A stretch of 64,000 nucleotides of DNA from positions 99 to 64,098 of the forward strand of contig CAIQBE010000022.1 in assembly GCA_903870015.1 (NCBI GenBank). The letters are read 5' to 3'. Shown piece by piece: positions 3,001-9,324 of this stretch (positions are counted from its first letter, which is position 1; each line of letters starts with the position of its first letter). This DNA is from an uncultured Thiotrichales bacterium (lineage in GTDB: Bacteria > Pseudomonadota > Gammaproteobacteria > Francisellales > CACEW01). Position numbers: made by a program.

Positions 3001-6000
3001 GAGTTTGTACAAGGATTAGCATAATTATGAGACGCAATATTCATGCCGAAGATTATAAAAGCAAAGCCCAGCTTAAGCGAGAGGCTCAGGCTTTAGAGGA
3101 TTTGGGCCAAACCATGGTGGGGCTAACGCTCAATGTTTTAAAAAAACTAGCGTTGCCTGAGCGTATTTTTGATGCTATCGTCGCAGCGCAAAATATGAAG
3201 ATGGCTGCACGCAAGCGTCAAGTTCAATTTATTGAGCGCTTATTGCGTGAGGATGAAGATCTTGATTTAGAGGCCTTGCAGCGCACGCTGACGACGTACC
3301 TCAAATAAACTCACGCCAGTTGCCACTGAGACATTTAAGCTTTCAACGGTTCCGAGCATGGGAATCTTAACGAGAAAATCACAGTGCTCTTTGGTTAAGC
3401 GTCTTAGGCCTGATTCTTCTGCGCCTAACACTAAAACTGTTGGGGTAATAAATTCAGTGGAAGATATGTCTTCATCCGCTTCACCCGCTAAACCATAAAT
3501 CCAAAAACCTTGCTCTTTTAAATCGGTTAATGCACGTGCTAGGTTGCTGACCACGGTCACAGGCATGTTTTGGCTAGCGCCGCAAGAGACTTTGTGGACG
3601 ACTGGGGTGACCTGTGCGGACCGATCTTGGGGGATAATCACGGCATCAACACCAAAGGCATCGGCGCTGCGAATGCAGGCACCTAAATTATGCGGATCGG
3701 TAATGCCATCTAATACCAAAATGAGTTTGTTGTTGGCTAGAGATAATTGCATAATCGATGCCATGTCATAGGTGGTGGTTTGATCTTGTTGTAAGACGCA
3801 AATCACGCCTTGATGATTGCCGTTGCTAATTTCATCGAGTTTTTCTTTAGACACGCTTTCAAGCTGAATATTGTGTTTGCTTGCCAGTTCGCTAATCGTT
3901 TTAAGACGATCTTCTTTTTTGTGCGCCTGTATCCAAATGCGTTGGATATTCTGGGGTTTGGACTTAACTTGCGCTAATACGCTGTGAATGCCATAAATAA
4001 TCATAAGTCTCTTTGATTGATTTTAGTGGCGTTACTATACCATTTTTTGTGCTATCAGGCAATTTATTTTCTTGGTTGATCAAAAAAACATTTGCACATT
4101 TTGAGATCTCGTGCTATATTTTTTATGATCAGTTTAAATAATGAATAGGAGGTGCCAGTGGCAAGAGAACAAACTATTGCTCCCAAAGAGCGCGTTAATA
4201 TTTTATATAAGCCGGCGAGTAATGCAAAAGAGGATGTTGAGCTTCCTTTAAAGATGCTGATGCTGGGGGATTATACTTTGCAGGTGGATGAGCGGGCGCT
4301 TGAGGATCGGCGGCCGATTAATGTGGATAAGGATAATTTTAATGAGGTTTTGGCGGCACATAATCTCCATTTGAATATGCAGGTGCCTAATCGTTTAGGC
4401 AAAAAAGATAGCGCGGATGAGTTAAATATCCAGTTGCGTGTCCAAAATATTAGTGACTTTGAGCCCGATCGTATTGCTGAACAAGTGCCGGAGTTAAAGC
4501 AGTTATTAGAACTACGTCAGGCTTTAGTGGCTTTAAAAGGCCCCTTGGGGAATGTGCCGTCATTTCGTAAAAAATTACAAAGCATTATTAAGGACAAAAC
4601 TGCATTAAGTCAGTTTTATCATGAGTTAGGCATTAACGAAGCTGAGGGAAATTAATATGGCACAGGCATTTGCGCATCAAAGCGTTGAAACTAAAACCAG
4701 CTTGTTAGATGAGCTTTTGGCAGAAACCCATGCTTTGCCACAAGATGAAGCGTATGGCATTACCAAATCTGGCCTCCAGGCTTTGGTGCGGCAAATGACT
4801 GGGGATGCGCAGGCGATTGAACGTATTGATAAAAGCTTGGTTGATCGTTTTATTGCGGATCTTGACCAAACCATTAGTGTGCAAGTAGATGAAATTATTC
4901 ATCATGCACAATTTTGTAAATTAGAATCTGCTTGGCGTTCATTAAAGTTTGTGGTGGATCGTACTAATTTTAGAGAGAATATTAAAATCAATATACTTAA
5001 TCTTTCGAAAGCCGATTTGGTGGAGGATTTTGTTGATTCGCCTGAAATTCCTAAATCGGGTCTTTATAAATTGGTCTATACGAGTGAGTATGGGCAGTTT
5101 GGCGGTGAGCCTTATGGCTGCCTCGTAGGGAATTATGAGTTTGATTATTCTGCGCCTGATATTAAGTTGCTGCAAAATATTGCGGCCGTGGCAACTATGG
5201 CGCATACGCCATTTTTGGCAGCAGCTAGCCCAAAATTTTTTGGGGTTGAAAATATTGAAACCCTACCCAATCTCAAAGATATCAAATCTATTTTTGAAGG
5301 TCCGCTCTATGCGAAATGGCAAGCCTTTCGTCAGTCTGAAGATGCGCGTTATATTGGCTTAACTTTGCCGCGTTTTTTATTGCGTCAGCCGTATCATGTT
5401 GAGGATAATCCTTGCAAGGTGTTTCAGTATAATGAAAAAGTCAGTGATCATCGTGATTATGTTTGGGGAAATAGTGCTTTTGCTTTGGCAACGCGTGTTG
5501 CTGATAGCTTTGCAAAATATCGTTGGTGCCCTAATATTATTGGGCCTAGCAGCGGTGGAGTAGTTGAGGATTTGCCCTTACATCATTTTGAATCGATGGG
5601 TGAGATTGAAACTAAAATTCCTACCGAAGTTTTGGTGTCAGATCGCCGCGAATATGAGTTAGCCGAAGAGGGTTTTATTCCGCTTGCATTTCGTAAGGGA
5701 GGGGACAATGCCGCTTTTTTCTCGGCTAATTCCGTACAGCTGCCGAAGTATTTTGGTACAAGTAGTGAAGGGCGTACGGCAGAGCTTAATTATCGTCTTG
5801 GTACGCAATTGCCTTATATGTTTATTGTGTGTCGGATCGCGCATTATTTAAAAGTCTTACAGCGGGAGCAATTAGGTTCGTGGAAAGAGGCCTCTGATCT
5901 TGAAAAAGAGCTCAATAAATGGATCAGTCAATATGTCGCTAATCAAGAAAATGCCCCGGCAGATATTAGAAGTCGTAAACCTTTGCGTTTTGCTGAAATT

Positions 6001-9000
6001 ACTGTTGTAGATATTGAGGGCCAACCAGGTTGGTATAAAGTAAATATTTTGGTGCGGCCGCATTTTAAATACATGGGGTCTGATATTACTTTGTCTTTAG
6101 TTGGTAAATTAGAAAATGCGAATAAGCCATAAAAAAACTTTACAGCAGGCGCCATTATTACAGCGTTTGTTGATAAATATGCCTGGGCGTATCAGTCATT
6201 CAGATTGGGTGTGCTATGTGGCAGAGTCATTGTCAAAACTTTTGAATGCGCGACAGGGTGCAGCTTGTTCTTGCAAAGATTATGGCCTACCTGATTTTAA
6301 TGAGTTGACGCATATGCCGGCACAGCTGATTAAAATGCTGGAGCGCAGTATGCTTCAAACGATCAATACTTATGAGCCTAGATTAAGTCAGGTCAGGGTC
6401 ATGGGCAGACTTGATGAGGAGTTTCCAGATCGAATACGTTTTAGTATTTACGGTGTGTTGACCTTAGGCGAAGAAAAACATCACGTGAGTTATCAATCAG
6501 TGATGACACCAGGAGGGCGGATGATTGTTAAAATGTAACAGGGTTATGCTATGAGTCAAGCGCAAAAATATTATGAAATGCAATTAAAGCTGTTGCGCGA
6601 GCAAGGTAAAGTTTTTGCTCATAAGCATCCCAAGCTTGCACCATTATTAAGTGACGGCGATGTTGATCCTGATATTGAACGCTTGCTTGAGGGCTTTGCA
6701 TTTATTTCAGGGAAGCTCTGGCATAAAATTGATGATGCTTATCCGGAAATCTCTGAGCAGTTATTGGAGTTTATTGCCCCTAATTATTTAAAGCCTTTGC
6801 CCTCGTGTAGCATTCTGGAGTTTATTCCTAAAATTTCACAGGCTGGAGTCAAGCGTATTCCTCGTGGAACAATGATTGATGGGCTTAAAAATCAAGTGCA
6901 TTATTTTTTTAGCACGAGTTATGATACAGAAGTTCTGCCGATGCAATTGACTTCAGTTTCTTCTAAACATGAATATGGTGAGTTAGTCTTGCGTCTTGAT
7001 TTTGCTATGCTGGGTGCGATGCATCTATCACAACTGCCTGATACACTACGTTTATATTTTTCGACAGATTTAAGCTCGGCATATTGGTGGCGCTACTTAT
7101 TGCTTGAGCAATGTGCGCAAATGATTTTTTATGCTGGTAATGAAGTAGTCGTCCCTATTAAAAATATGCAAATTGATCCAGTGGGTTTTGGTGCTGAAAC
7201 CATCTTAAATCCTCATGCTTCTGATCATCATGTCACGCAACACTTGCTTGAGTATTATAGCTTTCCCGAAAAATTTATGTTTGTTGATTTAAAAAAATTG
7301 CCTTGGCAATGCCTGCCCTATGCTCAAAATTTTAGTTTAGAGTTTTATCTCAAGGCGCCGTCGAGATTAAAGCTTAATACTACGCTTGAAAATTTTAAGA
7401 TCAATTGCACGCCTATTATCAATCTTTGGGAGCACCATGCCGCGCCCATTGTGCATGATCATACTAAAAGTCGTTATTTCGTTAATGTTCCTGAGCTTGA
7501 ATTAAGAGCCGAAGTGCATAGTGTGTTTGCGCTTGATGCATGGTCGAATCAAGCGCGTGAGCGTTATGATTATCAAGCGGCATATCGCTGTCCCAATCCT
7601 CATAAAAATATTAATCGTTATCAAGTGTATTTAGAAGAAGGCATTACGGCACCAAAAGCTTATCTTGAGTTATGGGAGGGTGAATTAAAATCTGTTGATA
7701 AAATTACCATAGTTCCCAAGATTTTGGCGTATCAGCCTGAGGCTTTTTTAGAAGTCCAGCGCGGTGATATTTTTGATCAGGGTCAGAGCTTATTAAATTG
7801 CGGTTATGAAAATATTAGTCCATTGTCCATCCCGGTTTATCCGCCGTTGGGATCTCGGGTGTCTTGGCACTTATTGTGTTATTTAGCCATGGCATATAAA
7901 AATTTAGATGAATTAGAAAATCTGAAAATTTTATTATTACAACATGATTTTGCCACGATGCATGGAGATCGTTATCAAGGCATGGGGCAAAAAATTGCAG
8001 ATAGCCTGCATCAGTTCTCTCAAGAAGCTGTCGTGCGTTTCCATAAAGGCGAAGCTTTGCGTGGCTTTAAAACTGTTTTGTCGATTAAAGATGAGGCATT
8101 TCTTAATCTTGGGGAGTTGTTTTTATTTGGCAGCCTAATTGCTAAAATTTTTGCCGATCATGCGCCGTTTAATAGTTTTAATGAATTGGAAATTCAAGGT
8201 GTGTCTTCAAATATCGTTTTGAATTGGCCAGTATGATGACATCTATCTTAACACCCTTAAAAAAGAGTTTTCATTTTTTTGAATGGCTTGCTTTGATGCG
8301 TTTGTTAAAAAAACTTAAGCTACAGGATATCCAATATTTTTTTAAAAGCTCGCCCTCGATGGGCTTTCAGTCACGTGAAGTTGCAGCCTTTAATCTCGAA
8401 GATTCTGATCTCGAAATTACGGCCAACTTTCTTGGGCTTCAGGGCGCCTCAACGCCAATGCCTTTGCACTTTACTGAAATGATTCTACAAGATGATCCTG
8501 ATGATTCTGCGCTGAACGAATTGCTCGATTTTTTTAATCAGCATTTTTATGAAGCTTTGATTGCTATTGATGCCAAATATCATTATGTGGCTCAGGCGCT
8601 GCATGGGTATGAAGATGCCTTGAGCCAAAATTTACAAGCCTTGGCAGGCTTGCCGATAGCACATGCGTCAGCAAAAAAGGCCTGTCGATATCAGTTATTG
8701 CCGGGGTTGCAATATTTGATAGGCGGGCGGGTTAGTAAGCAGGGCTTGTGTTTGTTTTTGCAGCGTACATTTCCGGTAAAAAAAGTGGTGCTAAAAGAAT
8801 GCGTCAAAAAAGCGATTGCTATTCCAGCGCGAGAACAGAATGCTTTAGGCCTTCATGGCATCTTGAGCGAGTCTTTCATGTTGGGCGCACAGGTTCATCA
8901 ATCGAGCCTGCATTGCGAGCTGCATTTATATTTGGATCGGGTTGAGCCGTTTTTACCAGGTTCTGAGTATTTTTTGCAATTAAGAGATGTTCTAAGCTAT

Positions 9001-9324
9001 ATGTTGCAGGCGCCTTTGTTTGTTACTCTGGTATTACATGCAGCGTGGGTGAGTTTGCCGATATTAAGCTCTAGCAGCACCTTGCAGCTCGGATATACCA
9101 GTGTCCTAGCCCGGGGGGCACAGCATTCATACGGTCTCAATCTAGTCTTTTTATAGCTGCCCATGGCTATAAAATGCTACAAAACAGCCAGTTTTTCTAA
9201 TATTTAGCAAAAATTAGCAAAAAATCTTGCCAAGCCCTATTTACAGCCCGCCCAACTTTGGTTAGAATAGCCCCTCGTTTCCCCTTGTAGTTTAAAAAGG
9301 GTAAATGAGCAAGTTATTCCCCGA

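Follow-up and report, generated by a model that had tools for sequence, protein, structure and literature searches.

A tssBCEFG operon between rlmB and tRNA-Asn

A block of five type VI secretion system (T6SS) genes, tssB-tssC-tssE-tssF-tssG, lies in a 64,000-nucleotide stretch of contig CAIQBE010000022.1 (GenBank assembly GCA_903870015.1), which comes from an uncultured gammaproteobacterium and was analysed over its whole length (the window). The five genes follow one another on the plus strand over positions 4158 to 9156, with rlmB on one side and a tRNA-Asn gene on the other. This module had been recognized in a first-pass annotation made from the sequence alone, and both its content and its boundaries were confirmed by open reading frame (ORF) listing, by Pfam and NCBIfam searches, the latter with curated equivalog cut-offs, and by ARAGORN. 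All five genes (5/5) scored above the curated NCBIfam cut-offs, tssG only just. The start codons of tssB (GTG, 4158) and tssG (8233) were taken from gene calls on identical metagenome contigs.

3267 to 4004, minus strand: rlmB, a divergent housekeeping gene that forms the left boundary outside the module (TIGR00186, 261 bits)
4091 to 4129, plus strand: promoter-like region upstream of tssB, with two overlapping sigma-70-type matches in a consensus scan
4147 to 4152, plus strand: Shine-Dalgarno site AGGAGG, 5 nt ahead of the GTG start of tssB, read from the sequence and kept in the related loci L023 and L018
4158 to 4655, plus strand: tssB, VipA-type small sheath subunit, 165 amino acids (aa) (TIGR03358, 161 bits, cut-off 97; PF05591, 170 bits)
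4657 to 6132, plus strand: tssC, VipB-type large sheath subunit, 491 aa (TIGR03355, 674 bits, cut-off 271)
6116 to 6538, plus strand: tssE, gp25-like baseplate wedge subunit, 140 aa (TIGR03357, 87 bits, cut-off 53; PF04965)
6551 to 8236, plus strand: tssF, baseplate wedge subunit, 561 aa (TIGR03359, 360 bits, cut-off 260; PF05947)
8233 to 9156, plus strand: tssG, baseplate wedge subunit, 307 aa (TIGR03347, 153.9 bits, marginal to the cut-off of 143.3; PF06996, 153 bits)
9318 to 9393, plus strand: tRNA-Asn(GTT), the right boundary outside the module (ARAGORN)

The operon is as tightly packed as had been described, with a single nucleotide between tssB and tssC and overlaps of 17 nt between tssC and tssE and 4 nt between tssF and tssG. 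Its distance to the tRNA gene, given earlier as 160 bp, was measured as 161 nt from the tssG stop. The GC content of the module (0.40 to 0.41) equals the contig average.

The sheath type was assigned by comparison with the PDB, where TssC matched Vibrio cholerae VipB best (694 bits), ahead of Myxococcus xanthus TssC (684 bits), Pseudomonas aeruginosa TssC1 (395 bits), and Francisella IglB (280 bits). With the canonical, V. cholerae-like T6SS-i (VipA/VipB) the module shares a two-subunit sheath, TssE, TssF, and TssG proteins above their cut-offs, and a ClpV-binding helix, and its TssB and TssC are 55 to 74% identical to those of complete systems. In the alignment, TssC's N-terminal helix (S15-LLDELLAETHA) is conserved both in complete systems and across the clade of related loci described below. 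In most T6SSs it is through this helix that ClpV is brought to contracted sheaths (PMC5048182), and retention of the helix suggests a ClpV partner. The Francisella pathogenicity island encodes a T6SS-ii in a lineage to which the host is related. This type was ruled out for the module by the lower score of TssC against IglB than against VipB (280 versus 694 bits) and by the IglH/TssF model NF041246, which reached 21 bits against a cut-off of 75.

The operon of sheath and wedge-core genes is intact, under selection, and provided with its own conserved promoter-like region of the sigma-70 type. The first promoter match reads TTTGCA-18-TATATT with a TG extension and the second TTGAGA-17-TATGAT; the number of sites returned by the consensus scan in this region is not above chance. 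The TTGCAC/TTGCGC element, the extended -10 element (TGnTATATT), the 5' untranslated region (UTR), and the Shine-Dalgarno site are nearly unchanged among the window (4091 to 4157), L023 (2466 to 2617), which belongs to the sister metagenome-assembled genome (MAG) GCA_964758605.1, and L018 (7370 to 7547). The conserved spacer thus delimited takes in the hexamers of the promoter, some 45 nt of UTR, and the Shine-Dalgarno site, and it is approximately 89% identical between the window and L018 despite the saturation of coding synonymous sites between the two (dS >2). A regulatory element may sit in the 5' UTR of tssB (TTATGATCAGTTTAAATAAT). A sigma-54 promoter, as in the T6SS of V. cholerae, was sought in the spacer by eye and rejected on the unfit spacing of GG and GC.

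Purifying selection acts on the five tss genes. Against L023 (dS, 0.8 to 1.0), the ratio of nonsynonymous to synonymous substitutions (dN/dS) is 0.11 for tssB, 0.04 for tssC, 0.14 for tssE, and 0.11 for tssF, compared with 0.015 and 0.04 for the flanking genes rlmB and darP. The ratios against L018 are similar, and tssG, compared with that locus, gives 0.16 with dS saturated.

Other T6SS components and the arrangement across the clade

Pfam scans of all other window ORFs of at least 120 aa, which were also the sole check for PAAR proteins, found no T6SS family beyond the five genes. When the six-frame translation of the window was searched by phmmer with TssA, TssJ, TssK, TssL, TssM, TagF, Hcp, ClpV, and VgrG, no credible match was obtained, the best being at chance level (E value 0.004, 11 bits, over a 41-aa stretch). 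These queries came from two annotated clusters, one in Piscirickettsia salmonis and the other in a Manganitrophaceae genome, where the complete cluster has the order tssJ-K-L-M-tagF-tssA-B-C-hcp-E-F-G-clpV-vgrG. A local set of profile hidden Markov models (HMMs), derived from 80 generic T6SS loci, gave zero window matches at E ≤10. Neither the 64-kb window nor the 10 kb on either side of the module in the clade loci contains tube or spike genes (Hcp, VgrG, PAAR), and matches to TssK, TssA, and the membrane complex TssJ-TssL-TssM are likewise zero in both; clpV is missing from the window by phmmer and by the local profiles. The earlier statement that no vgrG, tssK, tssA, tssJLM, clpV, or PAAR gene occurs in the 64 kb is thus borne out by Pfam, phmmer, and the local HMMs, and for PAAR by the Pfam scans of ORFs of at least 120 aa. 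As the window makes up nearly all of a metagenome contig of 64,105 bp, what is missing from it is little guide to the genome as a whole, and for the clade loci the absence of partners covers about 20 kb per genome.

The first-pass annotation had further pointed to the lack of hcp between tssC and tssE as its usual place. The gene is indeed absent there, but the place is not the usual one in this branch. Of 68 related generic loci, 50 have tssE immediately after tssC and only 16 have hcp between the two, so that a missing hcp at this position is not unusual.

A search for TssF homologues revealed a separate clade of 19 clusters with 34 to 79% identity, followed by a drop to generic TssF at about 30%. 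In the clade loci examined, the same intact tssB-C-E-F-G block lies among housekeeping genes in at least six flank contexts.

Window, L001/L002, and L018: darP-rlmB on the left, tRNA-Asn on the right
L023: darP-rlmB on the left, contig end inside tssF on the right
L107: darP-rlmB on the left, a 723-aa ORF on the right
L019/L020: tilS-like gene and S24 peptidase gene on the left, malic enzyme gene on the right
JGI 3300059473: GT2 gene on the left, a flank common to L108, and uvrB on the right
L022 and L003: cspA on the left, Ham1 gene on the right
L012: bla-Fic on the left, HAD gene and fmt on the right
L104/L106: smpB...RnfH-GH18 on the left, a 1342-aa orphan on the right
L109 to L111: smpB...RnfH on the left, DUF2383...rlmN on the right

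Every clade locus long enough to show them retains all five genes, the sole exception being the ambiguous contig end of L023, and rlmB is the neighbor of the module in L001, L002, L018, L023, and L107 as it is in the window. Isolation of the five-gene block is an ancient trait shared by the whole clade. Across the contexts examined, no gene regularly accompanies the block, and the flanking orphan ORFs of L012, L018, L019, L105, L106, and L107 have no homology to one another or to the window. Our literature search returned nothing specific on this lineage or on an orphan tssBCEFG module. In L104 (ENA ERZ27320655), a transposase of the DDE type found in insertion sequences (IS) lies at 6054 to 6960, directly upstream of tssB and between the GH18 chitinase gene and the operon.

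The internal order B-C-E-F-G is that of most related generic T6SS-i loci, but these loci have several of tssA, clpV, vgrG, hcp, tssK, and tssJLM within 10 kb, whereas the window module has none. The nearest outgroup (P0031/L021, from JGI metagenome 3300086413) reads fha...tssA-tssBCEFG-clpV-vgrG-DUF2169-PAAR-like. It has the same internal order without hcp, with TssF 33% and TssC about 74% identical, but carries tssA upstream and clpV-vgrG downstream where the window clade has housekeeping genes. From the order in this outgroup, the five genes appear to be the middle of a standard cluster whose neighbors were lost or moved.

The cluster of P. salmonis (L006) offers another comparison, as a T6SS-i in a gammaproteobacterium that is intracellular and bears a Dot/Icm system; there too, tssE directly follows tssC. 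It differs in being contiguous with tssA, tssJ, tssK, tssL, and DUF2169/DUF3540 genes, and because its TssF and TssC are only 21% and 60% identical, it represents a separate lineage of the system. In L006 of strain NZRLO1 (3605 to 8040), genes for DUF2169, two pentapeptide-repeat proteins, and DUF3540 lie directly upstream of tssA-tssBCEFG; tssJ-K-L are divergent, and a 171-aa ORF without a Pfam match follows tssG.

A split T6SS-i and its alternatives

Of the three explanations put forward in the first-pass annotation (one piece of a split system, a decaying remnant, and a module with a noncanonical tube and spike), the first has the best support, and we regard it as likely that the operon is part of a split canonical T6SS-i whose remaining core genes lie at other loci. 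In such systems, an Hcp tube is sheathed by polymerizing TssB and TssC; the assembly sits on a baseplate of TssEFGK and VgrG that docks to TssJLM, and the sheath is recycled by ClpV. It is from this known architecture that we infer the missing genes to be elsewhere in the clade genomes. Transcribed from a conserved sigma-70-type promoter of its own in the spacer between rlmB and tssB, the operon would contribute TssB and TssC for the sheath and TssE, TssF, and TssG for the wedge core of the baseplate to a VipA/VipB-like T6SS-i, while tssA, tssK, tssJLM, hcp, vgrG, and clpV would be found at one or more other loci, on contigs outside the window. An ancestral cluster of the tssA-tssBCEFG-clpV-vgrG type, as in the nearest outgroup, would have been broken up early in the lineage, and the five-gene block would have been inherited as a unit ever since. 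Judged from sequence, the partner genes are presumably present elsewhere in the genome and the system presumably fires.

A split arrangement is supported by the precedent of Neisseria, where core genes are distributed over two loci (T6SS-A) or, in N. animaloris T6SS-Bi, over three clusters, 30 to 60 kb apart (PMC10210955). In that genus, conservation is much higher for sheath and tube proteins than for baseplate and membrane proteins (PMC10210955), and the module resembles it in having a sheath much more conserved than the baseplate. The units differ, as tssBC travel in Neisseria with tssK/L/hcp/clpV or with tssA...clpV (PMC10210955), whereas the unit here is exactly tssBCEFG. A lone icmW on the same contig (coordinates below) shows that secretion-system genes are scattered in this genome anyway and is counted in favor of the split. 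If the split is real, a T6SS-i is added to a lineage close to Francisellaceae that is uncultured, probably associated with hosts, and equipped with Dot/Icm; its cultured relatives differ in using T6SS-ii or none. It would also document a stable T6SS split, with the sheath and wedge core as an independent operon with its own promoter. This would be useful to annotation pipelines, which label such loci "incomplete"; the system would otherwise be ordinary.

Several observations weigh against a split canonical system. No partner gene was found in the 64 kb, and the number of partner tss genes within 10 kb of the module is zero in every clade member examined. For comparison, the 80 generic T6SS loci were searched with the same phmmer references; these loci came from a metagenome scan with the clade TssF alignment (the matches listed were all generic, with TssF 26 to 31% identical). 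In all 20 of the loci with full 10-kb flanks on both sides, two or more partner families (median, five) occurred near tssF, and TssK was found within 10 kb in 19/20 and TssA in 17/20. In the sister MAG, homology of the L023 tssF to the window ends near codon 455, with 130 bp of the contig left; these final 130 bp (L023 6375 to 6513) are unrelated AT-rich sequence with an early stop, which represents either a real truncation or insertion or an assembly artifact. Finally, when the clade loci L003, L012, L018, L019, L022, and L023 are compared with generic loci, TssC identities of 81 to 86% go with TssF identities of 37 to 41% in the clade, whereas TssC at 70 to 80% goes with TssF at 43 to 54% in generic loci. 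This skewed divergence could mean altered baseplate partners, or may be no more than a sign of very strong constraint on the sheath; in the closest clade pair, L003 and L022, the ratio is normal.

Some of these observations bear on the possibility that the clade truly has no canonical partners and that the sheath and wedge module works with noncanonical components, such as a divergent tube and spike encoded elsewhere or a docking site on IcmF/DotU of Dot/Icm, the homologs of TssM/TssL. We consider this rather unlikely. It would account for the contrast between the clade loci, without partners within 10 kb, and the 20/20 generic loci with them, for baseplate proteins that are unusually divergent relative to the sheath, and for the absence of tssA, the immediate upstream neighbor of tssB in the outgroup and most generic loci; the Dot/Icm system indicated by icmW would be at hand. 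However, no candidate partner is conserved beside the module, the flanking orphan ORFs being mutually unrelated, the ClpV-recruiting helix of TssC is retained, TssB and TssC, at 55 to 74% identity with their counterparts in complete systems, favor a standard sheath templated by Hcp, and the absence extends over only the roughly 20 kb per genome noted above. A more specific version, that the tube, spike, TssK, membrane-complex, and ClpV genes were lost while tssBCEFG were kept under selection and fire with an IcmF-DotU anchor or an unrecognized tube and spike, appears quite unlikely. Were the partners truly absent, the clade would be a rare natural experiment on a sheath and wedge module without canonical tube, spike, or membrane complex. 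A role outside secretion, for example as an intracellular contractile or scaffold structure without tube and spike, is highly improbable. The strong constraint on TssC (dN/dS, 0.04) and the apparent isolation of the operon would fit such a role, but selection on TssE, TssF, and TssG and the ClpV-binding helix fits a machine that fires and is recycled better. We know of no precedent for a nonsecretion role of T6SS sheath and wedge proteins, and this counts against it.

Decay of a once complete T6SS cluster with loss of function, one of the explanations offered by the first-pass annotation, has very little probability left. The presence of only 5/13 core genes, the loss of tssF homology in L023, and the transposase upstream of tssB in L104 might suggest it. 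It is contradicted by dN/dS values of 0.04 to 0.14 on all testable genes, by ORFs that stay intact to TssF identities of 34 to 40%, and by the conservation of the promoter, UTR, and Shine-Dalgarno site; disabling mutations in relatives, which would have pointed to decay, were not found, as neither the window nor the other clade loci have a frameshift or internal stop apart from the ambiguous L023 contig end. All five genes are retained across 19 TssF clusters, and because the block stays intact over so much divergence (TssF down to 34%), a dead remnant is not tenable. A pseudogenized remnant was accordingly rejected on the intact ORFs, the purifying selection, and the clade-wide retention. To the idea that the module is cargo of an island at tRNA-Asn, functionally tied to its OTU protein and large orphan ORFs, we give almost no credence. 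The module is near the tRNA gene, and a P4-type integrase, the OTU protein, and ArdA are encoded nearby (coordinates below), but the integrase and island are 3' of the tRNA and the module is 5' of it. L018 is collinear with the window over 1472 to 9409, including tRNA-Asn (ahpC-darP-rlmB-tssBCEFG-tRNA-Asn), has no integrase, and has nothing 3' of its tRNA that matches the window, which refutes the idea and removes the tie that had been drawn between the module and a tRNA integration hotspot. Other clade members carry the module in unrelated housekeeping contexts without a tRNA, the GC content of the module does not differ from that of the contig, and Pfam scans found no T6SS effector markers in the island.

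The tRNA-Asn island and the host lineage

As L018 keeps the operon and the tRNA without the island, the latter is a lineage-specific insertion 3' of the tRNA, with the operon on the conserved backbone side. It extends from 9394 to about 34800 and, in addition to the genes below, encodes a TPR protein, a LuxR-PAS regulator, and eight large ORFs without a Pfam match; one of the eight is a 1349-aa protein with a C-terminal P-loop.

9556 to 10464: P4-type integrase, the first island gene, short at 302 aa and matching positions 163 to 394 of a 413-position model
10624 to 13053: OTU-domain protein, 809 aa (Pfam)
16409 to 17035: ArdA (Pfam)

No distal copy of the tRNA-Asn 3' end and no convincing direct repeat were found that would mark the right border of the island. 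The co-location of the operon with effector-like genes, which had been thought worth attention, is coincidental, since the island is missing from L018. With icmW present, the island genes would more plausibly be substrates of Dot/Icm than cargo of the T6SS.

Housekeeping genes occur along the whole contig. Among PurA sequences, the closest come from gammaproteobacterial MAGs (63 to 84% identity), the nearest named ones being Cysteiniphilum (60%), Facilibium (59%), and "Francisellaceae bacterium" MAGs (59%), and the closest TssC proteins in GTDB species genomes are in MAGs labeled Francisellaceae (82 to 83%). The lone icmW lies at 37146 to 37574 on the plus strand (PF23130, 77 bits), shares 4 nt with the start of a hexapeptide-transferase gene, and has no other dot/icm gene nearby. 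Its presence shows the host to possess a Dot/Icm type IVB system and to have its secretion genes scattered. By these markers the host, an uncultured gammaproteobacterium, is related to Francisellaceae, and it carries Dot/Icm as well. Near the end of the window, at 62912 to 63916 on the minus strand, a 334-aa protein has a weak match to the C-terminal domain of eukaryotic REV1 (PF16727, 29 bits, cut-off 26.5); a eukaryote-like effector and a chance match are both conceivable.

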